The translations under genes and the position numbers were made by a program. This document shows positions 33,002 to 60,407 of a stretch of 64,000 bases of DNA, piece by piece (positions within the stretch are counted from its first letter, which is position 1; every line of letters starts with the position of its first letter). Under the pieces are notes generated by a model. That model saw only the letters and a program-made list of their open reading frames with translations, had not been told where the DNA came from and made no database searches. The stretch spans positions 33,849-97,848 of the IMG/VR virus record IMGVR_UViG_3300027921_000016, one strand, 5' to 3'. This DNA is from a virus.

Positions 33002-33955
33002 TTAGCGGCTGCCGATCAGTCCGGTGTACTTGGTGATGGCGTTGATTTCTTCCAGGGCGAAGGCAACCCGCGCCGTGAGCACGATCACGAACACACGAGC
33101 GGAGATGTCCTTGGTGTACTCGATCTGGATGTTCCGCTGGATGCCGAAGATCATGTTCATGGGATCGGTGAACAGACCTTGATCACCTGGCATCAGCGCG
33201 ACCGGGGTCACCCTGGAGCCGAAGGTGAAAATCGGCAGGGTGCCTTCCGCGTGCTTGTCGCCCATGGCGGTCTGGCGACTGGCGTACAGGTCACGAAACT
33301 CGGTCTCGTTGTCCACGGACACGAAGTGCTGGAGGGCCGCACGGTTACGCAGATAGCGCGTGGGCATGGTCTTCAACGCGGCCTTGGAGGCATTCTTGTC
33401 GAAGGCACCGCCGACGTTCACGACGTTTGCGGTGGCCAGCTTCAGATAGCCGTTGGACATCGCCAAGAAGGTGTCGGCAGAACTCGTATCGCCACGGATT
33501 GCCAGCTCTTCCAGGTCCAGGGCCGCACGCTCAGAGATCAGGTCCACGATGGTCTGGTGGATACCACCGGCACCAGTTTGCAGAGGCACGTTGGTGTTAC
33601 CGCCCTCCACGTTGTCCTCGATGACATCGTAGGGAATACGGACCTCGGCGATCACCTCACTGGTATTCAGTGTGACCTGACCCAGATCAGGTTTGCTGCG
33701 GTTGCCGGCAGCCAGGCCGGTACCGACCGGGGCATCAGCAGCGGCGGAGCGCAGAATGCGGGAACCAAAGCCGATCTTGTTGATCTTCATCTGGGGGCTC
33801 TTCATGGCCACGGTACGGCATACCGCGAGCACAGTCGGCTGGTCGATGAGGGTACGAATGAAACGGTCGGTCTGTTCGGGGTTCAGGCGTCCAGCGGTGG
33901 CCAGATCGGCAAGAGCCATGTCGGCTTTCCGGATGATTTCCTGGTTGGTGGGCAT
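33002..33955 (-). CDS. Major capsid protein (HK97 fold)
   Basis: LATAGRLNPEQTDRFI...EDNVEG...ALDLEELAIRGD; AAGGA RBS. Confidence 0.9.
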   Translation of the reverse strand: MPTNQEIIRKADMALADLATAGRLNPEQTDRFIRTLIDQPTVLAVCRTVAMKSPQMKINKIGFGSRILRSAAADAPVGTGLAAGNRSKPDLGQVTLNTSEVIAEVRIPYDVIEDNVEGGNTNVPLQTGAGGIHQTIVDLISERAALDLEELAIRGDTSSADTFLAMSNGYLKLATANVVNVGGAFDKNASKAALKTMPTRYLRNRAALQHFVSVDNETEFRDLYASRQTAMGDKHAEGTLPIFTFGSRVTPVALMPGDQGLFTDPMNMIFGIQRNIQIEYTKDISARVFVIVLTARVAFALEEINAITKYTGLIGSR

Positions 33956-35245: not shown

Positions 35246-35839
35246 CTACTCGATTTTCAGTGAGTCAACAGAACTGAAGCGATGGCTGTGGCCTGACGCT
35301 ACTTCCGTGTGAGTACCGGCTTTAATCGCGTGCTGGTGACCCTTGACGCTATCCGTGGTCCCGCCCTTGAACTGCCCATGGGCATCGTAGGAAACAAAAA
35401 ACTCGTGCTCGTGGTCATCGGACTTACTGGTCTTGCCAGTGACAACCGGGGGGATATCGACTTCGAGTTCCTGCTCATGGCGCGATACAAGAGCTTCCAT
35501 GCTGAATCCATTGATTCCTCCCTTTTTCACACGATCCCAGAGGTCACCCTCCGGGAACTGCATGGCGATCACCCAGGAGCCTGGAATAAAATCGGGATCA
35601 CCATCACGGGCGATGAACGACTCGACCACGTGGCAGGGCACGAGCTGGTTGTCGTGCATGACATCCACTTGGTCAATCTTCTTGCTCATCACAAACTCAT
35701 GCGCCATCTTGCGAATCTCGTCCGCACGCATGAACTCCCCCTGTGCATCAGGGCGGTCAGGAGAATACACCTCCCCCAGGACTATCCGTTGGTCCGGGGC
35801 ATCTGCTTTACTAACGATCATCGGCATGATCAACCTCAA
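35246..35839 (-). CDS. XkdF-like prohead serine protease
   Basis: GEVYSPDRPDAQGEF...MH...VESFI...GSW...INGFSME; His-rich C-terminus. Confidence 0.85.
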   Translation of the reverse strand: MRLIMPMIVSKADAPDQRIVLGEVYSPDRPDAQGEFMRADEIRKMAHEFVMSKKIDQVDVMHDNQLVPCHVVESFIARDGDPDFIPGSWVIAMQFPEGDLWDRVKKGGINGFSMEALVSRHEQELEVDIPPVVTGKTSKSDDHEHEFFVSYDAHGQFKGGTTDSVKGHQHAIKAGTHTEVASGHSHRFSSVDSLKIE

Positions 35840-36237
35840 CTTAAGTTTTTGAGCTTGTACGCCGTGGAACCCAGCAAGGCCGAAATCTCATCCAGCATAT
35901 TCTGGAGTTCCGAGTCCTGGGGGGTACTGCCGCGAGCGTTCTTCAGGTACCCGATGCAGGAATCCAAAAAATGCGAGGCCGACTGCACCTGGAATGCAGC
36001 AGGGATGTTCGGGTACTGGGTGATTCGACCGTACACTCCTTGATATGCTTCCACCCAGGGGTCCACCAGATCAGGCAGCCCCTCATAGAGATCGCCCAAA
36101 GCGATATGCTGGGCGTAGCTGGTGGAACTCAGGTGCAGCAGGTGTGCAAACGTCCGGATGTGCATGAGGTTCACTACCACCGCTGCCATGTCCTCTTCGG
36201 ACTGGGTTACGGGCTTGAGTGCTTTTGCGAAGTCCAT
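35836..36237 (-). CDS. Ferritin/Dps-like four-helix protein (DUF5856-like)
   Basis: AHLLHL...SYAQHIALGDLYE...EAYQG...YKL. Confidence 0.7.
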   Translation of the reverse strand: MDFAKALKPVTQSEEDMAAVVVNLMHIRTFAHLLHLSSTSYAQHIALGDLYEGLPDLVDPWVEAYQGVYGRITQYPNIPAAFQVQSASHFLDSCIGYLKNARGSTPQDSELQNMLDEISALLGSTAYKLKNLS

Positions 36238-36364
36238 GATTACTCCTTGCAATTGATTGCAGTAGTTTACGGCAACCAGGTCTAGCTAACAACCGGGGAC
36301 GAGGGTTGTTGGGGTACGGGCACCAGGGGCTTGGTGCTGCCCTTGTACGTGGGGGGTAGTAACC

Positions 36365-39300
36365 TCATGCTTGTCCTCCAATGCGTTTCACCAAGTCCTT
36401 GTCCAGCAGGTCCAGGTAGAAATCTCCTTCATACCCCTGGAGAATCCACTCGCCAACCGTTTTGTTCCGGTAGATGAAGGGCAGGGCCATCAAGTCCGTG
36501 AGTGCATGCTCGTTCTCGTTCGAGAGCAGGTTCATCACCGTTTTCTTCTGGTCATCATCCAGCGCCAGGTACACCTTGTTTAGACTCCCGTCCTGAAAAT
36601 CATCCATGGCCTCCAACCGTAGGGCCTGCCAATCACTGGCTTTGGGTACAAACCCCAGATGCGCGAACTCAACAGCAGCATCCCCGGTGGCAACCACAAT
36701 CGTGGTGGCTCCCAGTGTGTCCTTGGCCTCGACCATCCCATGGAGAACTCGGGTGAAGTACGCTCTGGCAGCTTTCTCCCCGTTCACAGCCGCAAACTGC
36801 GCCTCAGACAGGTAGAGAGTGCCCGTGTACGGGTCTAGGACCTGCCTGATGGTGGCAGCCGGGGTAGACAACGCGAGTACGATGTTCCCGCTCTTGTCGA
36901 ACGTCACCACCCCACCCTTGAGCGCGTCCTCAACGGTAGTGCCAAACAACATCTTGATCACCTTGATCGGGTCTTTCCCGATGTAATCATTCCACTGCTG
37001 AAGATTATCGACCGTGATCTCCGGGGATACCACCGTGAATGCCTGTGCCGGTACCTTTTCCTCCAATACCCCAGCAGGGGCTTTCAGTCTCGGGGCTTTC
37101 ACTCCCAGGTCCTTCTCACCCTCAACAGCAGTGCACAAGGTCCTGCAATTAGACCCCCAGGACACCCTCCCTTCTAACTGAACCAACAACGTGTGTGTGT
37201 GTTCCAACTCCACGTCGTACACTGTGCCTTCATACGGTACTACCTCTACACGAGTCGCGGCTCTTGCTTTGCTGGTAAGCCAAGACACCCTCCACTGATC
37301 GTAGTTTTGCGTGTACACCCCATTACCATGGACTTGTTGAGTTCCGGCACTAGATACTCTCCTAAAAGAGGCGGACCCCCCTGCTCTTATCATCAACTCC
37401 ACCAACCCGTCACGCATACGGACAGAACTGGTAGTAATAGTCCTCTCTTCCGAATGAAACCCAAAGAACTTGGACCCTTTTTCCCTACGAGACCCATCCC
37501 CCAAGATGTACGCATCCAGAAATACACGGATAAGATCAGGGGATAAAGAAAACACCCACTCAGGCACGTACTTACTGTGAGATTTTCCAAAGACGGCACA
37601 AGCCGCCCCCAAAACAGCATCAGACACCGCAAGTTTGTGCCCGGATATATGCTCATGCTTTCTGACCCCAGGACACAGCCTGGATATATCAGAGAACATT
37701 TTGTTGGCGTACTTAGTTTGTGCTATTACCGGGTAACAATACCTGCCATCAGAATGGTATTGCACACTCCCCTCTGATAAGTAATACCCCAAGAATTTCA
37801 ATAGAGGCTTTGTTGGCCACATCCTGCCGGCAAACATAAGGGTAGCAGGTGAGGTTCCCTTATGCCCACTACTGCAATACACCTTAGCCTCCTTACGATT
37901 AGAGGACAAGAACTCACCTACAGTACCAAACACCATTTTACGAGAGCGTCCTCCTTTACCAGAATCAACCCTACGTTCCCACAGCATAGTGTGGTCAGGA
38001 GTTACCATTTGTAACAACGAACCCTGGTTATTTGAAAAACGGAGTACCTCTCCGGAATACTGGTACTCCATCTTTTTAATGGCACTAACCCACTTCAAAG
38101 ACCGATCTTCTGTGTCCAAAGACAAGAACAAATCGGAAGAAATGTCCACGTCACTAAAATCTACAAAACCTCTACGGGTATACACCTGCGTTCCAGCTAC
38201 ATAGCACATCGGATGAAATGGCGGAATCCCCAAGCCAGCAGCCTGCAACTGTGCATCCGACATCTCAGTGTACTTGGCCATGGACTCCCTATCCTGCTTG
38301 GGCCATGGCTGGAGGGTCTTCACGTCCTCCGGGTCTTTGGCGGTCAAGACCTTGGTAACCAACGAACGGGCTGAGGCAACATCAAACTGCCTGCCATTGA
38401 TCATTCGGCAGAAGTCACTGGTACGGCCATCGAGAACGGCTGTCAACTGGTAGCGAGTACGCCCAAGGTGCAGAGATTCAGTAGTGAACCCCCAAGTGCT
38501 CAGGCGGCTGGTGTTCAAACTGGCCGCAATCTGAAGCTCCCCAATCCCAGGGTCAACAAAGGGCTGGAATGGCTGTACAAACCTACCACCAGCATCCGCC
38601 TTCTCCACTACCGAATCTTTCCAGTCAGTATCCAGGGCCTCGAACACTTCACCATAGAACTCCAGAGGGCCTGTGTAGGACTTGATCTTGGTCAAGTCCA
38701 GACCCTCATCCACGTCGTAGGTGATCGTGATATGCGGGTGATAGCCTTGGTAGTCCCAGGAGGCACCGGCTACTCGGAGTTCCTCCCAGGCCTCCTGCAA
38801 TTGATTGCAGTCGAAGTGCAGAACCACCGCACCCTCACTACCGAGAGGCTCAACCGTGCGACTGCCTCCGGCACATACAAGAGGTTCGTGATCCACCCAG
38901 GATTGATCCCAAGCCAGGGACTCCCGGCTATAGGCGATGGTCACATGTAGGTCATCGGCGTTCACGACCTTGGAGAACCCCTGAGACTTTGCCCAGGCAA
39001 TGAACGCCTCTGGGTTCTTCAGCCTTCGACTAACGTAAAGAGGTTGCGGGCCTCCAGAGAGCTGCGAGTTCTTGGCCCCTGCCACCTGGAGATCAGCAGC
39101 CTGTATGTCCTCCTTACGGGAGGGCATGGAGAGGCTGAGGTCGTCCCATCCGAATCTGCCAACCCCAGACACCACTTTGTACGCGGCCTCGGACTTCACA
39201 TGTACAATCTCCGCATCGTAAACAATGCCTTTCACCGGCCTCTTAAACCTAGGCGTGATTACTACTTCTGTTGGGGGTGGTCTCAACCGGATAGTCTGCC

Positions 39301-40870
39301 CCCTCCCTAACAAAAACTCCGCCTCCCCCCCATAACTTACACCCTCTACCACGGATATATACGCCCCGATGGTGCCCTTTGGTACTTTTATCCGCAACAG
39401 ATTAACTGAGTTATGCCCACCTACATAGGTATTAACACTAAACTTAGCGGCGGTTATGGGCTTTATCGAGGTAGACAAGTACCCGTCGTCCGTGATTACC
39501 CCTCCCGCCAGCAACCGGGCCGTTACTTTCGCACTAAGCCCACGGTATACCGTCAGGTCTTCTTCGGTCTTCCCGGCGGCCTCTAGTGCACTGTCTAGCT
39601 CCGAAATAGTATCCATATACACGGACCCCAACCCTGTACGGAGCCCCCTGTTTATATCCTCGTAGGCTGCTCCCATGTAGGTCTCCACAGCCTGCACTTG
39701 ACTTCCCGTGAGCCCATCCAACCAAGGCTTGTATGCCTCGTACATCACCGTATGTAGTCGTCTCTCAACCTGTATACTTTCGCTGCCCCCCAACAGAGCA
39801 TCTATAGGTGCCTCTCTCACGCTTCTAAAAGCTGACCCCCTGCCTCCAGGGGCAAAAGTGAACAACCCTTGTTCATCGTGATAGGGGTTGTACTTCTGCG
39901 CTATTTTTTGGGGTACAGACTCCACAACTATATGCCCTTGCCTTTCCACACCGAAGATAGTACCCCTGCTAGTAGCAGGCTTAACCTCAATCACCCTAAA
40001 TACGGTCCCAGCAGGGAGCACTACCTCAGAACCACCACCTTCATGTACCCCTCCGATATCCTTCCCTACCGTGTCGGGTTGAAGGCGGACCTCTATAATC
40101 ATCTTGTCTCCAGGCCCATTACGCATATAGAAGTCCGCAACCGATGGGTCTGTGTCCGTAGACACAAATCTGGCATCCCCTCCAAAAGTATCCCCCACCG
40201 ACAGCCGTAGGAGCTTCTCAGCGTAACTACCCCGCACACCCCTATAAGTAGTCACTCGTCTACCCCCTGTAGACGACAACAACCCCTGCTGAAACTCTTG
40301 AGCAGAAGAACTGTAGTTCATTCCGTCCACACCAGACATCTGATCTTCAGGGTGCCTGAAATGTCCTGTTCTATAGTTTGACACCGCAACAGAATGCTTA
40401 GCCCTACTCCTATCAGTACACCTACCTAGTTCATCATGGTAAGGATTGGATTTCTGTACTGACCCAAGGGCCTGGGTCTTATCCTCGGTCTCAGCTACTG
40501 CAATCAATTGCAAAACACGAGCCCTGAGCATATCCGTACCCCGGTACTTCAGGTGCCGAAGCATGTTCTCCACCGCCTGGTCGATTACCGGGTCATGGTC
40601 AGGAGAAGCCGCGTACAAGGCTCCTCGTTTGTTGGCCATCTTGGCTCCGAAAAGCGCCGAGGCCAGGAGCATGCGCCGGATGTACTCACGATTGTCCTCC
40701 CCTACTTCTTCGAGACTCAGAAGATGCACCTTAGATACAGCCTCTCGGTACTCTCCGGCTTCAACGGCATTTTGAATGTCTCGGTAGACTGCCTGCGAAC
40801 GCACAGTCCAGTCCCTCACCAGCCTACGGGTGAGACCGACCTCAATGGCTAGGTAACTACGGACGTCCAT
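36365..40870 (-). CDS. MuF-type minor head polyprotein: 2 ADP-ribosyltransferases, Acb1-like 2H phosphoesterase, LAGLIDADG intein
   Basis: AVLDGRTSDFCR...PPFHP(intein)CRT MuF motif; YRG...ST...E ART motifs twice; two HxT motifs. Confidence 0.85.
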   Translation of the reverse strand: MDVRSYLAIEVGLTRRLVRDWTVRSQAVYRDIQNAVEAGEYREAVSKVHLLSLEEVGEDNREYIRRMLLASALFGAKMANKRGALYAASPDHDPVIDQAVENMLRHLKYRGTDMLRARVLQLIAVAETEDKTQALGSVQKSNPYHDELGRCTDRSRAKHSVAVSNYRTGHFRHPEDQMSGVDGMNYSSSAQEFQQGLLSSTGGRRVTTYRGVRGSYAEKLLRLSVGDTFGGDARFVSTDTDPSVADFYMRNGPGDKMIIEVRLQPDTVGKDIGGVHEGGGSEVVLPAGTVFRVIEVKPATSRGTIFGVERQGHIVVESVPQKIAQKYNPYHDEQGLFTFAPGGRGSAFRSVREAPIDALLGGSESIQVERRLHTVMYEAYKPWLDGLTGSQVQAVETYMGAAYEDINRGLRTGLGSVYMDTISELDSALEAAGKTEEDLTVYRGLSAKVTARLLAGGVITDDGYLSTSIKPITAAKFSVNTYVGGHNSVNLLRIKVPKGTIGAYISVVEGVSYGGEAEFLLGRGQTIRLRPPPTEVVITPRFKRPVKGIVYDAEIVHVKSEAAYKVVSGVGRFGWDDLSLSMPSRKEDIQAADLQVAGAKNSQLSGGPQPLYVSRRLKNPEAFIAWAKSQGFSKVVNADDLHVTIAYSRESLAWDQSWVDHEPLVCAGGSRTVEPLGSEGAVVLHFDCNQLQEAWEELRVAGASWDYQGYHPHITITYDVDEGLDLTKIKSYTGPLEFYGEVFEALDTDWKDSVVEKADAGGRFVQPFQPFVDPGIGELQIAASLNTSRLSTWGFTTESLHLGRTRYQLTAVLDGRTSDFCRMINGRQFDVASARSLVTKVLTAKDPEDVKTLQPWPKQDRESMAKYTEMSDAQLQAAGLGIPPFHPMCYVAGTQVYTRRGFVDFSDVDISSDLFLSLDTEDRSLKWVSAIKKMEYQYSGEVLRFSNNQGSLLQMVTPDHTMLWERRVDSGKGGRSRKMVFGTVGEFLSSNRKEAKVYCSSGHKGTSPATLMFAGRMWPTKPLLKFLGYYLSEGSVQYHSDGRYCYPVIAQTKYANKMFSDISRLCPGVRKHEHISGHKLAVSDAVLGAACAVFGKSHSKYVPEWVFSLSPDLIRVFLDAYILGDGSRREKGSKFFGFHSEERTITTSSVRMRDGLVELMIRAGGSASFRRVSSAGTQQVHGNGVYTQNYDQWRVSWLTSKARAATRVEVVPYEGTVYDVELEHTHTLLVQLEGRVSWGSNCRTLCTAVEGEKDLGVKAPRLKAPAGVLEEKVPAQAFTVVSPEITVDNLQQWNDYIGKDPIKVIKMLFGTTVEDALKGGVVTFDKSGNIVLALSTPAATIRQVLDPYTGTLYLSEAQFAAVNGEKAARAYFTRVLHGMVEAKDTLGATTIVVATGDAAVEFAHLGFVPKASDWQALRLEAMDDFQDGSLNKVYLALDDDQKKTVMNLLSNENEHALTDLMALPFIYRNKTVGEWILQGYEGDFYLDLLDKDLVKRIGGQA
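37148..38206 (-). mobile_element. Intein (353 aa) with LAGLIDADG endonuclease in MuF
   Basis: CYVAGTQV...VSWGSN/C; LGYYLSEG and LDAYILGDG. Confidence 0.9.
38610..39050 (-). other. acb1: Acb1-like (anti-CBASS, T4 57B family) 2H phosphoesterase domain; boundaries approximate
   Basis: LYVSRR...DLHVTIAYSR...GASWDYQGYHPHITITY. Confidence 0.75.
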
Positions 40871-45275: not shown

Positions 45276-45697
45276 AGAACCTCCGTCAGAGGACCGCCAA
45301 CATCGGTACTCGGCTGACTAGCTAGTCTTTCAGCCCCCACACGCTCTTCCTCCCGTATGAGCAGCTCCAGGCGTGCAAGGGCATTCCAGGCTGAATGGGC
45401 CGCGTGCATGAGGCCGGACTCCAGGTCATAGGTCTCCCCTCTAGCCTCTGACAATAGGTGCCTGTACATGGCGTCTGTGTATCGCTCTTGCGCGCGGTCT
45501 ACTCTCAACCAGTTACCAGGAGCGTATTTCTGTGCTCCGAAGGTGGTCACCATAGCCACAGCGGTCAGTGCTCGTGCGAAGTCTTGCATCCTCAAGCCTA
45601 CCCTGGGCTTGCCCTGGTCGTACTTACGGCCGTGATCCAGTGCACCTACATCTTGTGGTGCGGTACACTGGGCAGAGGGGTGAATGGTATTAGACAC
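45272..45697 (-). CDS. dATP/dGTP diphosphohydrolase (DUF5664-like)
   Basis: GRKYDQGKP...FGAQKYAPGNW...AMYRH...DLESGLMHAAHSAWNAL. Confidence 0.85.
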   Translation of the reverse strand: MSNTIHPSAQCTAPQDVGALDHGRKYDQGKPRVGLRMQDFARALTAVAMVTTFGAQKYAPGNWLRVDRAQERYTDAMYRHLLSEARGETYDLESGLMHAAHSAWNALARLELLIREEERVGAERLASQPSTDVGGPLTEVL

Positions 45698-48600
45698 GTT
45701 CGTAGCCCTTTAGGTACGCCATATCCAATCCAATCTTGGCATCGGCGGTAAACTTCAATTGAGGATTCCATCCCACCAAATGGAAAGGCAGGTTCTCCAT
45801 TATCTCCAATTGCTTGGGCAAGATGATGTCTACCTGATCCTCAGGGATATAGTTGTAGGCCGCGTCGTGAATTGCCCCAAAACAGGGGGAGACCTTGGAC
45901 AACCCCTGCTTGTGCTCTAGGGCGATAGTCCATATCAGCATGTCACTGAGAGTGCCTTGGATGGGAGAGTTGATAGCCTGCCGCTCGGCCCCACTTGCAA
46001 CCTCCCTATTGGGGGAAGTGATCAACGGCAGGTGGCGGATACGGCCAAGGGGGGACCGTACTTGGCCCTCTTTCTTGGCCATAGCCTTGTAAGAACTGTG
46101 GTACGTGAGCAGCCTTGGGTACGTGGCAAAAAACGCAGCATGAAAGGCCGTGGCTTCTTCCATAGTGAAGTACACCCCGTAGTTCTTAAAGGCGTAAATC
46201 TGGAAGCCCTCAGCCCCCATCCCGTACAGCAGACCAAAATTTCCGGGCTTGCCCTGCTGGCGGTACTTGGCGAACAACTCCGGGTCTGATACCTTGAGGG
46301 CCATCATCTCCTCGTATGTGAGGCCCGCAGCCTTGCCCCCGGTAATCACGTGCAGGTCCTTGCCGTCCTTATACGCCTGGAGCATCACCTGCTCATTGGC
46401 TACACAGGCAACGACCTTCAACTCCCCCTGGGAGTAGTCGCGCTCCACCACCAGATGCCCATCAGGGGCAATGTAGCAACGACGGATGCGCTTGGCCCAT
46501 TTCGTATGCTTGGGCACGGTGTTGTGCACCACCACCCCGTTAGCCACAAATGAGTGGCTGCCTTCGATGGTCAGGTCGAAGGTTTCACACTCCCCAGCAG
46601 GCACTACCGCTACTACTTTAATCTCTTGGAAGACATCCCGGTCCCAAGGGTCTCTTTCATCAAGGCTTGCTCCATCGGCATCCCCACGGATAACCGATAG
46701 TGCAACCGTCCCCGACTGATCCCGGCTTCTGACGCCCACTCGGCTTCGGTCTTGGTCTGCCCATTCCACGCGATCTTCTTGGAGTTCGTCTTGTTGCTCC
46801 CCTGTTGCTTGGGCGTAGCCCAAACACAGTTTCCCGGTTCGTAGTTGCTGTTCACGTCCAACCGCTCCACCGACATACCCTTGCAAGGCTTCTCCCCCAT
46901 GTCTTCCAGGAACTTGGAGAACTCCACCCACCGGGGGCACAACGTGATGCCACGACCCCCGTACCTCGGCCAATCCTTGCTGGTTGGACTGGTGCAACGA
47001 CTCTTCATGGCCACCCATGAGTGGTACGTTGGACTGGTGTACCCCTGCGTCCGATGTTGAACCCCTGTCCCTTTTAGCGGCATAACAAATATCCCCCGGT
47101 AAGAGTTGATCAGTACGAACCCACCCGCGAGAGGTCAGGTAGGGATGGTTCTCGGTACTGCCTACGATTATACCCGTTTCAAACGAAACGTCAAACACAG
47201 GTTGAACCCCATTGCGGTACACCCCAACAACCTCACGCCATGCTCCGGTATGCGTCAGTACCCTGTATGACTTGCCGCCCTCATACCCCATAACAATGGA
47301 CTCTATAGAAACGGCACCAGTATCGGTAAGCACCAAACTGCTGCCTCTCAAACACTGGAAGGTGGGCGCGTGGCAGGAGAGCCTACCGGTGTTGTGAGTT
47401 ACGATCCCACCAGTGACATGACTCTCATCAACCTCGACGGTAAGGCCATAAGTACGCACAGGAGTGGTGTCAAGTACAACCCGTACAACCTCAGACAAGG
47501 AGAATTTTGCCTCTTTCCCCCCGTAGTCTCTAGCCTCCCCTCGCTGTCCTGCCCGCACCGCGCGAATGAGCCTTTCACACACCCCAAACCTTTCAGACAA
47601 AGCCTTATTAGCCCACCCATGGTGGCGAGTAGCCACGGGCTGTGCCCGAATAAAATCAACAGCAGCTTGGCACAGTTTAGCCTGGGCACCGGTCCTACGA
47701 TTCATGGTCCCGTGGTTCACAGCGTCCTGCCGGTTACCCTTTGAAGTACCCCACCGTAGGTTACCCAACGTGTCATCCCAAGCAATGCCATTAAGATGGC
47801 GAATCTCGTCTCCTTTTCCTGGGACGTGGAACACCCTGGCCATAAGGCCGTGCACAGAGAAATCTTTTCGATCTTCCCCCCGAGATTGAGCGCCATTCCT
47901 GTACAAACAAACCTTCAAGTGCCCCCATTTTTCTTTAGGGTTCTGGGTAAGGAACTTACCCGTCTTGGTGTTGAATACCCGCCCCCAAGTACTCACCCTA
48001 AAGTCCTCCCAGTCGGGTACTACCTTCCACTCTTCTTTTCCACTGTGCACTACGATTGGGTCCCCAGGTTCAAGGTCTATAGCCTGCACCCAACAAACAC
48101 CACCTCCTACGAGGTACTTATGGTTCGGGGTTGTTCTTAGCTCCAACCCATTCGCTAAAGTGACGGTGACAATGGGCTGTACCCCGTTATCAACCGTAGC
48201 GGTAACCCGTCGAATCCTTCCGGTATGGGAAATAACTTGGTCGCCTACCTGAACACTCTCAACCGGTAGATACCCTCGATCAGTTAGCACCAACTCCCCG
48301 GCGGGCATACAGTTGGTTCCCCCTTCTCCTTCATCCTTGTTCCCGGCAAAGAACCAGTAACTTGGGTGCATGCGCCCATCCGAGCGTATGTGCTTCATGA
48401 ACCCCACCACGTAAGTACTCAGGGTCTTCGTGGCACTAGCATAGTCCTTGATCACGTTAATGAAGGCCTTGGCCTCCGGCACGTCCTCGAACTGTAGCAG
48501 GTGGTCCAAGCCTGTACTAGGGGCCTTGGTCCTCTCCGTAAACACCTTTGGTTTCAAGTTCAACCCCATGGGGCTGAACATGTAGTCGGTGATCATGCTG

Positions 48601-50552
48601 GCTTTGGTGAGGTTCAACCCGCCTAATTTGTCCGGGTCATAGTGCTTGGCCACCACCCGCCCACCGAGTACCCCCTTGGCCTGTGCAATCAATTGCAGGA
48701 TTTCAGTATTGAGATCGGCCTCCAACTCCAAAAGCCGTTCCCTGGAAACTAGGACTCCACCTTGCTCTACGGACTCAAACGCTCTGGCAGCCGGGTGCAT
48801 GATGTTCACGTAGAAACTGGTGAGCTGCCTGTCCTTGAGCAACTCCTGTTTCATTACATCCGCCACCTGCAAGGTAGCGTCGGAGTCCCCTCCCGCGTAG
48901 GACAGCAGCTTCTCAGGGGGGACGAGATCAATCCGTGACTTGTCTACTGTACGGTCAAATTCATCGCTGTTATGGCTGGCTAAGCCTTCGGCAATAAAAG
49001 TTGACGTGGAAGTTTTAATACTGACCACCTCCTGCACCCCAACAGGGGTTGCAGACACTACAAAATCATGAGTGTACTCCTGTGGGAGTGTGCACCCCCA
49101 CCAGTCCCCGTGATCAAGTAATCTGATAGGCCGGTACTTCTGGAGCACTAGCAAACCGCCGTAAGAACCCCTACAGGTTACATTATGACAACTCTTTCCG
49201 GCAGTTATATGCAAGGTAAAATCGTTTCCGGCTATAGACAGCGCCCTGTCCAAGACTAACCCCGGCTTCTGTGCAAATCCTAACCTGAATGAGTTTGAAT
49301 GGGCCGCCTTAGTGGTCCACCCCTCCCCGTCCAGCACCCCACTAAACCACCCGGAATCAAAATCGTCACCAGGAGGTATAACCTCGGTGACTCTTTTTAT
49401 TCTCTTACCCACCAACAACGGGTCCTCTGTCCTCATCCACCGAAGATTGCCTCCCTTCTCCCCCATGTTGACTAACCACATGTGATTGGCACTAACCCGC
49501 ATTTTAGTACCAGAAGACATCACTATGTCGTAACAAAGCAAGTTCAGTCTCTGCACTGACAATACCGCAGATTTCTTAATTACCCTCCTGCCTGTACTAG
49601 GGGAATGCTCATCAAAACCAACCAGGGTATCTCCCACCTTAACGCCGCTGGCCTTAGACCAGGATAGGTCCCCCATCCACAATCTTGTGTCGGGGGCCAC
49701 ACAGTAGCCCGCTAAGGAAGGTACATACACCTTGGCGTGCACGTCCAGGCCATTACTCCGGTTCTCGTCAAGAAGGGAACCCACCAACGTGGTGTCGAAC
49801 ACAAAGTTCGTACACACCAATCCCCCACGCACCCACAGCCAGTGAAGATCGTACTTCAGGTTGGCGCCCTTCATCTTCACCTTGGGGGTGGTGAGTATCC
49901 AGGCCAAATCAGCTACATGAAGGAGAGAAGAAAACCACGCCTCTTCTCTACCCCGGTTCTGAAACCGCAAAACTGCGGACTCCCCTTTTACAACCGACAT
50001 CTGAATGCTCACGACATAGGCTCCAGGATGGGTCAGGGTTGGTTTGAGGTACGGGTCGAGCCCTACGGTCTCTAAGTCCAGGGCCACATCAACCTGGGTT
50101 TGAGTGCCCTCGTACTGATCCTCGATGAACTTCCGTAGGGTATCGAACGAGTGCACATACTCGTACTTCCCATACACCGGGGCCATACTTCCTGTTTCGT
50201 GATACCTGAGGGCCATGCTAGTGTCGCACTGCAAATCCACATAATGTGCGTAGTCCACCACCTGAACGCCGGGGCTGTAGCTCACCAAGGCCCTCATCTT
50301 GGTCAGAGGCAGGGAGATTGGTTGATTGCGCAACCCCGTTACCTTCCTGCCTTTTGGAACGAGCTTCTCCTGCGCCAGCGCCTCCAGGGGCTCCTGCCCT
50401 AGACAAAACAAAACCCCTTCCAGCCCTTGCAGGCTTGGGAAGGAGCTGAAATCGTTGAGTACCTTTATCGGTATGTGCGGGTAGGCCTTAAATTGCACCC
50501 CCAGAGACTTCTGGAGTTTTGGTTGATCCATCTTTGTCCAGATCAGAAACAT
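45690..50552 (-). CDS. polA: Family A DNA polymerase (UDG-like N-terminus, 3'-5' exonuclease) with three inteins
   Basis: LDLET exo I, NLKYD, TGRLS, DYSQGEL motif A, K..NFGLLYG motif B, IHDA motif C. Confidence 0.95.
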   Translation of the reverse strand: MFLIWTKMDQPKLQKSLGVQFKAYPHIPIKVLNDFSSFPSLQGLEGVLFCLGQEPLEALAQEKLVPKGRKVTGLRNQPISLPLTKMRALVSYSPGVQVVDYAHYVDLQCDTSMALRYHETGSMAPVYGKYEYVHSFDTLRKFIEDQYEGTQTQVDVALDLETVGLDPYLKPTLTHPGAYVVSIQMSVVKGESAVLRFQNRGREEAWFSSLLHVADLAWILTTPKVKMKGANLKYDLHWLWVRGGLVCTNFVFDTTLVGSLLDENRSNGLDVHAKVYVPSLAGYCVAPDTRLWMGDLSWSKASGVKVGDTLVGFDEHSPSTGRRVIKKSAVLSVQRLNLLCYDIVMSSGTKMRVSANHMWLVNMGEKGGNLRWMRTEDPLLVGKRIKRVTEVIPPGDDFDSGWFSGVLDGEGWTTKAAHSNSFRLGFAQKPGLVLDRALSIAGNDFTLHITAGKSCHNVTCRGSYGGLLVLQKYRPIRLLDHGDWWGCTLPQEYTHDFVVSATPVGVQEVVSIKTSTSTFIAEGLASHNSDEFDRTVDKSRIDLVPPEKLLSYAGGDSDATLQVADVMKQELLKDRQLTSFYVNIMHPAARAFESVEQGGVLVSRERLLELEADLNTEILQLIAQAKGVLGGRVVAKHYDPDKLGGLNLTKASMITDYMFSPMGLNLKPKVFTERTKAPSTGLDHLLQFEDVPEAKAFINVIKDYASATKTLSTYVVGFMKHIRSDGRMHPSYWFFAGNKDEGEGGTNCMPAGELVLTDRGYLPVESVQVGDQVISHTGRIRRVTATVDNGVQPIVTVTLANGLELRTTPNHKYLVGGGVCWVQAIDLEPGDPIVVHSGKEEWKVVPDWEDFRVSTWGRVFNTKTGKFLTQNPKEKWGHLKVCLYRNGAQSRGEDRKDFSVHGLMARVFHVPGKGDEIRHLNGIAWDDTLGNLRWGTSKGNRQDAVNHGTMNRRTGAQAKLCQAAVDFIRAQPVATRHHGWANKALSERFGVCERLIRAVRAGQRGEARDYGGKEAKFSLSEVVRVVLDTTPVRTYGLTVEVDESHVTGGIVTHNTGRLSCHAPTFQCLRGSSLVLTDTGAVSIESIVMGYEGGKSYRVLTHTGAWREVVGVYRNGVQPVFDVSFETGIIVGSTENHPYLTSRGWVRTDQLLPGDICYAAKRDRGSTSDAGVHQSNVPLMGGHEESLHQSNQQGLAEVRGSWHHVVPPVGGVLQVPGRHGGEALQGYVGGAVGREQQLRTGKLCLGYAQATGEQQDELQEDRVEWADQDRSRVGVRSRDQSGTVALSVIRGDADGASLDERDPWDRDVFQEIKVVAVVPAGECETFDLTIEGSHSFVANGVVVHNTVPKHTKWAKRIRRCYIAPDGHLVVERDYSQGELKVVACVANEQVMLQAYKDGKDLHVITGGKAAGLTYEEMMALKVSDPELFAKYRQQGKPGNFGLLYGMGAEGFQIYAFKNYGVYFTMEEATAFHAAFFATYPRLLTYHSSYKAMAKKEGQVRSPLGRIRHLPLITSPNREVASGAERQAINSPIQGTLSDMLIWTIALEHKQGLSKVSPCFGAIHDAAYNYIPEDQVDIILPKQLEIMENLPFHLVGWNPQLKFTADAKIGLDMAYLKGYERV
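46521..47354 (-). mobile_element. Polymerase intein 3 (278 aa)
   Basis: CLRGSSLV...TENHP...FDLTIEGSHSFVANGVVVHN/T. Confidence 0.9.
46613..47083 (-). CDS. HNH-type endonuclease nested out-of-frame in intein 3
   Basis: YHSWVAMKSRC...YGGRGI...ERLDVNSNYEPGNCVWAT. Confidence 0.8.
   Translation of the reverse strand: MPLKGTGVQHRTQGYTSPTYHSWVAMKSRCTSPTSKDWPRYGGRGITLCPRWVEFSKFLEDMGEKPCKGMSVERLDVNSNYEPGNCVWATPKQQGSNKTNSKKIAWNGQTKTEAEWASEAGISRGRLHYRLSVGMPMEQALMKETLGTGMSSKRLK
47391..48311 (-). mobile_element. Polymerase intein 2 (307 aa) with NUMOD4/HNH endonuclease
   Basis: CMPAGELV...EEWKVVP...VSTWGRV...HLNG...NLRWGT...VTHN/T. Confidence 0.9.
48969..49703 (-). mobile_element. Polymerase intein 1 (245 aa) with single LAGLIDADG motif
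   Basis: CVAPDTRL...FSGVLDGEG...FIAEGLASHN/S. Confidence 0.9.
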
Positions 50553-59593: not shown

Positions 59594-59812
59594 TCAAACC
59601 CCAGGGGGACTGGCTGGTACCCCGGCTACCAAGCCGATGCTCTCGTTGTACAGTTCGAGCTGCGTCTTCTTGCGCTTGGGCTTGAGAATGGACTGGTACT
59701 CGACCTTGGCCGTGGAGTTGATGGCCTTGATGTCCGCCAGTATCTCTTGCTCGGAGAACGGGCCATCCCCGATGGATTCGTACAAGACTTGCAGTTCTTG
59801 GTTGTACATCAT
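59594..59812 (-). CDS. Hypothetical protein
   Basis: GGAG RBS, TAATG overlap. Confidence 0.6.
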   Translation of the reverse strand: MMYNQELQVLYESIGDGPFSEQEILADIKAINSTAKVEYQSILKPKRKKTQLELYNESIGLVAGVPASPPGV

Positions 59813-60240
59813 TACACTCCCAGTTTGGCCCGGCCTGCTTGGAACACCTTGTAGGTGACGGACTCCAAGGCGATTACACGATCTTTGGTAAGGCCCCAGG
59901 GCTTACTCGCGCCTTTTGGACGTGGCTCACCCTTGATCATCTGCCGAATACGAGACTGCACGTACTCGCGTTCTCCCTGGTTACGGAGGTTCGCAGAGTA
60001 CCCCGTCATGTACTTCATCATCTCCACCTGCTTCTCCTTCGGGGTGTCCCTCGGAAGTTGCCCTCTCGGAGAGGGTGGCGTCAGGTGTCTGGTGGCCACG
60101 GACGTGGCCTGTACTGCGGGCAACCCGATGGCGGTCAGGAGCTTGGCATGGGCCGAGGTCGGTCCACCAGGACCCGAAGAGAACCGCCCCTTCGTATCGT
60201 GGTATGGGTTTGCCTTGAGCGTCAGTCCATAATCCATCAT
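59812..60240 (-). CDS. Basic protein with N-terminal LKANPYHDTKGRF tag (putative internal head cargo)
   Basis: Same motif occurs twice in the MuF polyprotein. Confidence 0.7.
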   Translation of the reverse strand: MMDYGLTLKANPYHDTKGRFSSGPGGPTSAHAKLLTAIGLPAVQATSVATRHLTPPSPRGQLPRDTPKEKQVEMMKYMTGYSANLRNQGEREYVQSRIRQMIKGEPRPKGASKPWGLTKDRVIALESVTYKVFQAGRAKLGV

Positions 60241-60407
60241 GTGCACCTCTCTGCAATTGATTGCAGGTCCTCGACCTCAGAATAAAGTACCCGTTGACCG
60301 GACTCGTACAGGTATTCGCCGTCCTCTACCGCCCGGCGTTCACTGAAGTTGAGGTACGCCCACTGCTCTCTCAAGAGCGTGAGCACCATAAGAAGTTCGG
60401 ATCGCAT
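60237..60407 (-). CDS. 56-aa hypothetical protein not in ORF track
   Basis: MRSELLMVL...LQSIAERCT*, ATGA overlap with next gene. Confidence 0.45.
   Translation of the reverse strand: MRSELLMVLTLLREQWAYLNFSERRAVEDGEYLYESGQRVLYSEVEDLQSIAERCT

Follow-up and report, generated by a model that had tools for sequence, protein, structure and literature searches.

A MuF-family minor head protein with two ADP-ribosyltransferase modules and an Acb1-type module as a probable polyvalent cargo carrier in an uncultured phage

Polyvalent proteins packaged in phage heads were defined by Iyer, Burroughs, Anand, de Souza and Aravind (2017, J Bacteriol; PMC5512222), who listed ADP-ribosyltransferase (ART), InPase and 2H phosphoesterase domains among their parts, reported fusions of 2H domains to MuF or portal proteins, for which degradation of defence nucleotides was proposed, and gave the T4 protein Alt as an ART carried inside the head and injected along with the DNA. 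The MuF toxins of Jamet et al. (2017; PMC5576092) are C-terminal fusions of temperate phages. Here we describe a related protein in IMGVR_UViG_3300027921_000016, a complete 97,848-bp virus record with direct terminal repeats, of which the right-hand 64 kb make up the window analysed and numbered below (64,000 nucleotides). Its gene P0001 (36365-40870, minus strand) is a single open reading frame (ORF) of 1,501 amino acids (aa), probably best explained as a MuF-type minor head protein built into a polyvalent cargo carrier, in which a framework of N-domain, MuF core and GNAT-like domain holds three enzyme modules at the N-domain/MuF junction and which would be spliced, packaged, cut and injected.

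Three enzyme modules in a MuF-type framework

An earlier note on this DNA had read the gene as a MuF head protein carrying two ARTs and an Acb1-like domain directed against CBASS (cyclic-oligonucleotide-based antiphage signalling system), and our searches agree with it on all three modules, whose quoted motifs are each found at their residues. The Acb1 domain matched PF23474 at E = 2.7e-35 (121.6 bits against a cut-off of 27; 127 bits on the genome) and has its catalytic motifs at residues 642-644 (HVT) and 713-715 (HIT), which stand opposite HTT and HIT in the alignment with T4 Acb1 (7t26, E = 4.7e-10) and match both HxT motifs of the Pam3 portal C-terminus (8hds, E = 2.2e-11); an Acb1-type 2H phosphoesterase with intact catalytic motifs is supported by these alignments. 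ART-2 matched PF03496 at E = 2e-22 (80 bits, cut-off 23.4) and VIP2 structures at E ~1e-9 with the Y-R, S-T-S and E-x-E positions aligned. Its motifs YRGL (442-445), YLSTS (464-468) and EAEFLL (516-521) supply R443, S466-T467-S468 and E516-x-E518, and its sequence supports a VIP2/C3-like ART in which the R/STS/ExE residues are intact.

ART-1 was reached by a longer route, as residues 142-325 gave no Pfam match at E<=1, no match among PDB sequences and nothing usable in NCBIfam. Among the 21 matches returned by phmmer from 1.8 billion representatives, ten smaller ones were scanned and most of the matched stretches lay inside PF03496 domains. The motifs YRG (209-211), FVSTD (235-239) and GGSEVVL (279-285) provide the catalytic R210, S237-T238 and E282, all invariant in alignment A1; ART-1 shows G-S-E in place of E/Q-x-E (its nearest relatives show A/G-S-E) and retains the single catalytic Glu. 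The per-domain fold check that the earlier note had proposed was made with an AlphaFold2 (AF2) model of moderate confidence (predicted local distance difference test, pLDDT, 70-84 in the core), for which the top Foldseek matches were all C3/VIP2-type ARTs, the best at E = 3e-9, and the protein atlas scored it at 0.96 to ART clusters. Transitive homology to PF03496 domains and the predicted fold support ART-1 as a divergent R-S-E ART.

The framework was delimited by alignment to the 445-aa gp2 of Stenotrophomonas phage DLP_3 (Delepquintavirus, 96.9 kb), relative to which P0001 has two inserts, of 612 residues (142-753) and of 353 residues (889-1241). Residues 754-889 align with gp2 136-271 at 52% identity, and CRTLC at 1242 with gp2 271. 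The cargo had been described as inserted in MuF, which holds in the following sense: the three modules separate the N-domain from the MuF core, at a point without any insert in the DLP_3 homologue. The head-protein identity likewise stood, on the 52% identity, on PHROG minor-head matches and on the order of the surrounding genes: downstream of P0001 and its portal neighbour come a DUF5856 gene, an S78_2 protease, a scaffold-like protein and the capsid protein, and DLP_3 has the same order of portal, gp2, protease, scaffold and capsid. The core contains DGRT at 814-817 and HPxCRxxC at 886-889 joined to 1242-1246. The unspliced P0001, the form queried rather than the spliced sequence, did not match PF04233 (Phage_Mu_F) because the intein splits the MuF domain. 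Among relatives 45-63% identical over the core, P0030 reached 30.3 bits (cut-off 29.6) and the others fell slightly under the cut-off; the match of intein-free relatives supports the MuF identity of the P0001 core. Taken together, sequence and gene order support P0001 as a MuF-family minor head protein within a portal-MuF-protease-scaffold-capsid block.

The earlier domain reading was right for the three cargo modules and missed two further parts, a 353-aa intein (889-1241) and the C-domain (1250-1501). For the latter, 252 residues with an AF2 model at pLDDT 85.5, fold searches were led, weakly, by GNAT acetyltransferases (Foldseek E>=6.6e-3; VIA Z<=6.0), so that we call it GNAT-like tentatively, from its model. 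A clear coenzyme A-loop motif (Q/R-x-x-G-x-G/A) was not seen in the homologue alignment, Pfam gave no match, NCBIfam and PDB-sequence searches gave nothing usable, the protein atlas gave only unnamed clusters below 0.9, and a search of viral contigs for loci related to this domain returned no confirmed relative. Direct Pfam, NCBIfam and PDB-sequence searches with the N-domain also yielded nothing usable.

By their sequence anatomy, residues 889-1241 are an intein with a LAGLIDADG homing endonuclease. Cys1 is Cys889 inside PPFHPM↓C (arrows here and below mark splice points or putative cuts), TPDH forms block B and VYDVELEHTH block F, the two LAGLIDADG motifs read LGYYLSEGS and LDAYILGDGS, and the element ends in WGSN before Cys+1. 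It matched the PI-PkoII intein (E = 1.4e-4) and, weakly, both intein stretches of NCBIfam models, among them that of an archaeal PolII model, and the Pfam families LAGLIDADG_3 and Intein_splicing. The site is uninterrupted in DLP_3 gp2 and in P0002, a 1,493-aa metagenomic homologue with the module order Acb1-InPase-ART-PolyVal (HPGCRTLC / HPGCRTMC), and excision restores HPM-CRTLC; since the intein splits HPxCRTLC, the MuF core exists only after it has spliced out. P0002 has an intein of its own at another conserved MuF motif, after DGRT, and the two insertion points differ, so that inteins have entered the MuF core of this family at two distinct conserved positions.

At least 33 relatives were found with the whole of P0001 and its MuF core as queries, on contigs of up to ~120 kb. 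They form a graded series: about 15-18 without cargo (~490-560 aa), four with the Acb1/2H module only (591-714 aa) and ten large forms (846-1,503 aa) that combine Acb1/2H with ART-PolyVal, InPase, PFIN-like, ParB-like and other modules. Wherever a pattern could place the beginning of the MuF core, cargo lay upstream of the conserved RYV..FV.F block, and by sequence it occupies the same N-domain/MuF junction in all relatives in which that junction was located. In the alignment VVQK↓A, the one junction of DLP_3, pairs with the left border of the P0001 cassette (SVQK↓S) as well as with the right one (VVEK↓AD); thus, the cassette sits in, and duplicates, a pre-existing junction. The features are collected in Table 1.

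Table 1. Features of P0001 and associated genes (positions in the window; aa, residues of P0001)
Feature	Position	Strand	Evidence or remark
P0001, whole ORF, MuF-family polyvalent minor head protein	36365..40870	-	begins 8 nt past portal stop codon
N-terminal family domain, aa 1-141, ends SVQK↓S	40448..40870	-	31% identity to DLP_3 gp2 1-140; 34% to P0002
ART-1 module, aa 142-325 (ART ~190-320)	39896..40447	-	opens with K↓SNPYHDELG tag and ~45-aa low-confidence linker
ART-2 module, aa 326-559	39194..39895	-	opens with K↓YNPYHDEQG tag; PF03496 at residues 378-529
Acb1 module, aa 560-757 (domain 610-752)	38600..39193	-	follows HVK↓SE; ~50-aa spacer containing GVGRFG
MuF core, N-extein, aa 758-888, preceded by VEK↓AD, ends PPFHPM	38207..38599	-	52% identity to DLP_3 gp2; PHROG minor-head/head-morphogenesis matches
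LAGLIDADG intein, 353 aa, aa 889-1241	37148..38206	-	about 1/4 of ORF; splits MuF HPxC↓RTLC motif
MuF core, C-extein CRTLCTAV, aa 1242-1249	37124..37147	-	completes HPxCRTLC after splicing
Conserved C-terminal domain, aa 1250-1501, GNAT-like predicted fold (tentative)	36368..37123	-	27-44% identity in 10 homologous polyproteins
Portal gene, 916 aa	40879..43629	-	phrog_12 and TIGR01540 portal matches
DUF5856 / phrog_858 gene, 138 aa, annotated 'starvation-inducible transcriptional regulator'	35836..36252	-	between MuF gene and head protease
Head maturation protease, S78_2 (XkdF) type	35246..35839	-	PF14550 E = 2e-24; phrog_15223, phrog_3017
Scaffold-like protein, 392 aa	33999..35177	-	head-block position and phrog_3017 match at N-terminus
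Major capsid protein, probable start MPTNQEIIRK↓ADMALADL	33002..33955	-	phrog_1623 E = 6e-92
144-aa basic protein, N-terminus MHMMDYGLTLK↓ANPYHDTKGRFSS (...GLTLK↓ANPYHDTKGRFS; GLTLK↓ANPYHDTKGRF)	59812..60246	-	same Lys and tag header

Lysine linkers, module headers and proposed release of the cargo

Five Lys-containing linkers had been proposed to delimit the domains, VQKSN (138-142), AQKYN (324-328), HVKSE (557-561), SRKED (584-588) and VEKAD (755-759), and to resemble VSKAD in the protease and VTKAD in the scaffold. All seven are present. The 1,501 aa contain just four K[ASY][DNE] words (Lys 140, 326, 559 and 757), each exactly at a module border, with the borders defined independently from Pfam envelopes and the DLP_3 alignment. 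K[AS][DE] reaches a density of 3.9 per 1,000 aa in five head-module proteins versus 0.48 in the other 69 ORFs (~8-fold); the scaffold contains 5 such sites versus 0.93 expected from shuffles (p ~0.001). In DLP_3, the one other phage in which the word was compared, the scaffold contains 7 versus 1.6 expected (p ~0.0005), several sites keep their positions from one phage to the other, and the capsid N-terminus keeps K↓AD (IIRK↓ADMALADL here, IKK↓ADLALADL in DLP_3). The protease bears K↓AD in VSKAD at its N-terminus and TSK↓SD beyond the protease domain, and the scaffold bears VTKAD at residues 32-36. Before the MuF core, x-K↓A-D was found in 9 of the 11 large homologues (Lys in 10 of 11) and in two smaller cargo-bearing forms, and cargo-less forms likewise have K↓A/S at the junction. 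These motif data make the S78_2 head protease a candidate enzyme for processing of the polyprotein, and cutting at the Lys linkers plausible.

Some of these lysines are followed by a recurrent peptide. The QK-x-NPYHDE-x-G linkers that head ART-1 and ART-2 are identical at 24 of 33 bases and differ synonymously, which points to selection on the peptide; a recent DNA duplication was rejected on the same differences. Scanned in all six frames, the complete genome contains just three copies of the tag, the third at the head of a 144-aa protein, where it follows a 10-residue leader ending in Lys, and this gene (59812-60246) is possibly a free-standing head cargo protein. Relatives carry NP(N/Y)HD..GKF or GHEFHGNQW after Lys, and in DLP_3 a 56-aa gene between protease and scaffold begins MSDPTKVEK↓ANPYRGAGGKF. 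G-R-F/Y also occurs shortly after Lys in the pre-Acb1 spacer (aa 560-610, window 39041-39193, K↓SEAAYKVVSGVGRFGW) and at the start of the MuF core (aa 757-766, window 38573-38602), as K↓ADAGGRFV in P0001 and K↓AD..GRYV in relatives. The module headers may be imitations of the N-terminus of the MuF core itself. The literature searched gave nothing relevant on the tag strings (NPYHD, FHGNQ and others). As a tentative idea, for which we would claim somewhat less than even chances, these elements could form a portable grammar: an S78_2 cut after [hydrophobic]-x-Lys precedes a brief header (NPYHD..G-R/K-F or, in degenerate form, ..GRF..) resembling K↓AD..GRYV, and cassettes inserted at the pre-existing N-domain/MuF cleavage junction duplicate it, so that any enzyme could be plugged in, loaded, freed and injected, and free-standing proteins, that of 59812-60246 for example, would be loaded through the header as well.

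The course of events that we favour has four steps, for which the precedents of T4 Alt, MuF proteins and polyvalent proteins serve as models. First, judging from its anatomy, the 353-aa intein would splice out and restore HPxCRTLC in the MuF core. Second, homology and gene order suggest that the framework brings the protein into the procapsid beside the portal, like MuF/SPP1 gp7 proteins. Third, given the motif statistics and conservation, the S78_2 protease probably cleaves the [V/A/I]-x-K↓[A/S/Y]-[D/N/E] linkers on the C-terminal side of Lys. Fourth, the pieces would exit with the DNA on infection and, if they act as their families do, the ARTs would, like T4 Alt, modify host proteins, and Acb1 would hydrolyse CBASS-type cyclic oligonucleotides from the first moment of infection.

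Several points weigh against this proposal. P0001 taken alone is not enriched in the strict word (2 K[AS][DE] sites versus 1.4 expected), and K↓SN and K↓YN, two of its four linkers, lie outside the K↓[AS][DE] word whose enrichment was measured; scaffolds are rich in K, A, E and D, and shuffling controls composition only. For the K-A-D that is conserved ahead of the MuF core and at the start of the protease, a structural role instead of cleavage is conceivable, and the literature searched gave no cleavage specificity for S78_2-type head proteases. Folded enzymes of 15-25 kDa would be required to pass the tail, and MuF proteins are low-copy. The penultimate residue of the intein is Ser, not the usual His, which makes splicing efficiency uncertain, and ART-1 lacks both a Q/E-x-E pair and a direct Pfam match. 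The phage itself is an uncultured metagenomic record, known from sequence alone. With respect to splicing, a Ser-Asn instead of a His-Asn end does not disqualify an intein.

Part of this evidence would suit a chain that is never cut, packaged or not, in which the Lys words are features of flexible linkers or recombination joints, K-A-D is structural and the enzymes act tethered to MuF. The lack of a K[AS][DE] excess over shuffles in the polyprotein itself would then be expected, K-A-D-x-x-G-R-Y-V is indeed conserved as a block with the MuF core, and some polyvalent proteins are transferred full-length (PMC5512222). We nevertheless hold an uncut chain to be unlikely: the Lys word is significantly over-represented in the scaffolds of two phages and stands at the capsid N-terminus, where a domain linker is not needed, all four polyprotein sites coincide with borders, and a free-standing protein carries the tag as well, behind a short leader that ends in Lys.

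The source phage and the place of cargo action

Release from the virion may also be beside the point if the cargo acts in the producing cell, where fusion to a late head gene would time Acb1 and ART synthesis to the moment at which head proteins trigger CBASS-like defences, with packaging irrelevant or incidental. Within the late block the gene follows the portal gene in tight coupling, and virion-assembly proteins are reported to be linked to escape from Type I CBASS (bioRxiv 10.1101/2023.05.21.541620). Timing, however, would not require the encapsidation that is guaranteed by a portal C-terminus, which carries the Acb1-type domain in Pam3, phiPSA1 and Rhizobium phages, or by the fixed MuF junction, and T4 Alt is a packaged ART (PMC5512222); we therefore regard action in the producing cell as improbable, and injection of packaged modules as the better account.

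The combination of a MuF domain with ART domains also recalls the polymorphic toxins of Jamet et al. (2017), weapons against competing bacteria or modulators of lysogeny with an immunity gene, and MuF toxins are located in packaging modules (PMC5576092). That family is described as exclusive to temperate phages and prophages and bears its toxin domains at the C-terminus (PMC5576092), whereas the complete genome studied here gave no tyrosine integrase match, the P0001 cargo is internal, the C-domain shows family-wide conservation instead of polymorphism, and no immunity candidate was identified. A toxin of this kind is very hard to reconcile with the locus, and we give it hardly any credence beside the packaged-carrier explanation.

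The source phage, whose complete 97.8 kb gave no tyrosine integrase match, is an apparently virulent siphophage, kin of the Stenotrophomonas Delepquintavirus phages. Megablast of the P0001 gene against 50,697 phage records gave no match. An assembly chimera or pseudogene was rejected, given that the frame is open over 1,518 codons and that relatives on independent contigs have the same architecture. By its intein matches, the genome is unusually rich in inteins, in the polymerase, portal and MuF genes. The portal gene has 916 aa versus 602 aa in DLP_3, with a LAGLIDADG_3 match at residues 574-636 and a weak, sub-cut-off intein_Nterm match at 352-419, and probably also carries a LAGLIDADG-type intein. 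A family-A DNA polymerase of 1,620 aa (window 45690-50552, minus strand) matched intein N- and C-terminal regions and HNH endonucleases, which indicates that it holds several inteins. At the position of the DUF5856 gene, DLP_3 has no gene at all. The intergenic stretch 36253-36364, ~110 nt on the 3' side of the polyprotein stop, contains C-rich and G-rich runs (ccccaacaaccctcgtccccggttgttagc) and may be a hairpin or terminator.

Comparison with known systems

The concept was already published by Iyer et al. (2017, PMC5512222), and P0001 is a rich, well-resolved further example of it: two ARTs, a 2H phosphoesterase, a MuF domain and a GNAT-like domain beside portal and protease are what their definition of a polyvalent protein describes. 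The known concept is unchanged; what is gained is a dissected example and a concrete cut-site prediction. If the modules are indeed packaged and released, an anti-CBASS nuclease and two host-modifying ARTs would enter the cell with the DNA, ahead of all phage gene expression. The graded series at one junction, from no cargo through Acb1 only to several modules, is a clean natural system for counter-defence loading into capsids and suits the question whether the head protease doubles as a cargo-release enzyme, and, with an intein in its MuF core, the structural protein can form only once an additional step, splicing, has taken place. A literature search for Acb1 and MuF combined gave only unrelated papers.

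Among known systems, the polyvalent proteins of Iyer et al. share with P0001 several unrelated chemistries on one polypeptide in a portal/terminase head context, including ART and 2H domains with MuF, and share ART-PolyVal and InPase domains with its relatives; their packaging, injection and degradation of defence nucleotides were likewise predicted. They differ in their processing, which is proposed to rely mainly on built-in zincin (MPTase) peptidases, whereas P0001 has none and the phage's S78_2 protease, acting at Lys sites, is the candidate. The P0001 ARTs are of the R-S-E (VIP2/Alt) type, in contrast to the ART-PolyVal clade of that paper, and its cargo sits at one fixed internal junction in a protein whose MuF core is split by an intein.

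The comparison with T4 runs along similar lines. T4 Acb1 (PF23474; PDB 7T26/7T27) belongs to the same Pfam family as the P0001 domain, with both HxT motifs aligned and ~30% identity over the aligned residues, and is free-standing (~150 aa), whereas here it is one module of a head protein. The T4 head protease gp21 trims cargo at a short word common to scaffold and capsid proteins. Alt and the other internal proteins of T4 use I/L-x-E sites, one separate protein per cargo and a capsid-targeting sequence; in P0001 the word ends in Lys, the modules are strung on MuF, and the protease (S78_2) is of a different family from gp21.

Portal-Acb1 fusions, represented by cyanophage Pam3 gp3 (PDB 8HDS), Pseudomonas phage phiPSA1 and Rhizobium RHEph phages, resemble P0001 in placing an Acb1-type domain on a protein that is necessarily intracapsid, and the Pam3 structure paper makes no mention of that domain of the portal. 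There the carrier is the portal and the domain a single C-terminal module; in P0001 the carrier is MuF. Closest in framework are DLP_3 gp2, annotated as a 'ParB-like nuclease domain protein', and the ~530-aa cargo-less relatives, which have the same N-domain and MuF core as P0001; gp2, in contrast, has neither an insert at VVQK↓A nor an intein, and ends in a ParB-like C-terminus where P0001 has its GNAT-like domain.

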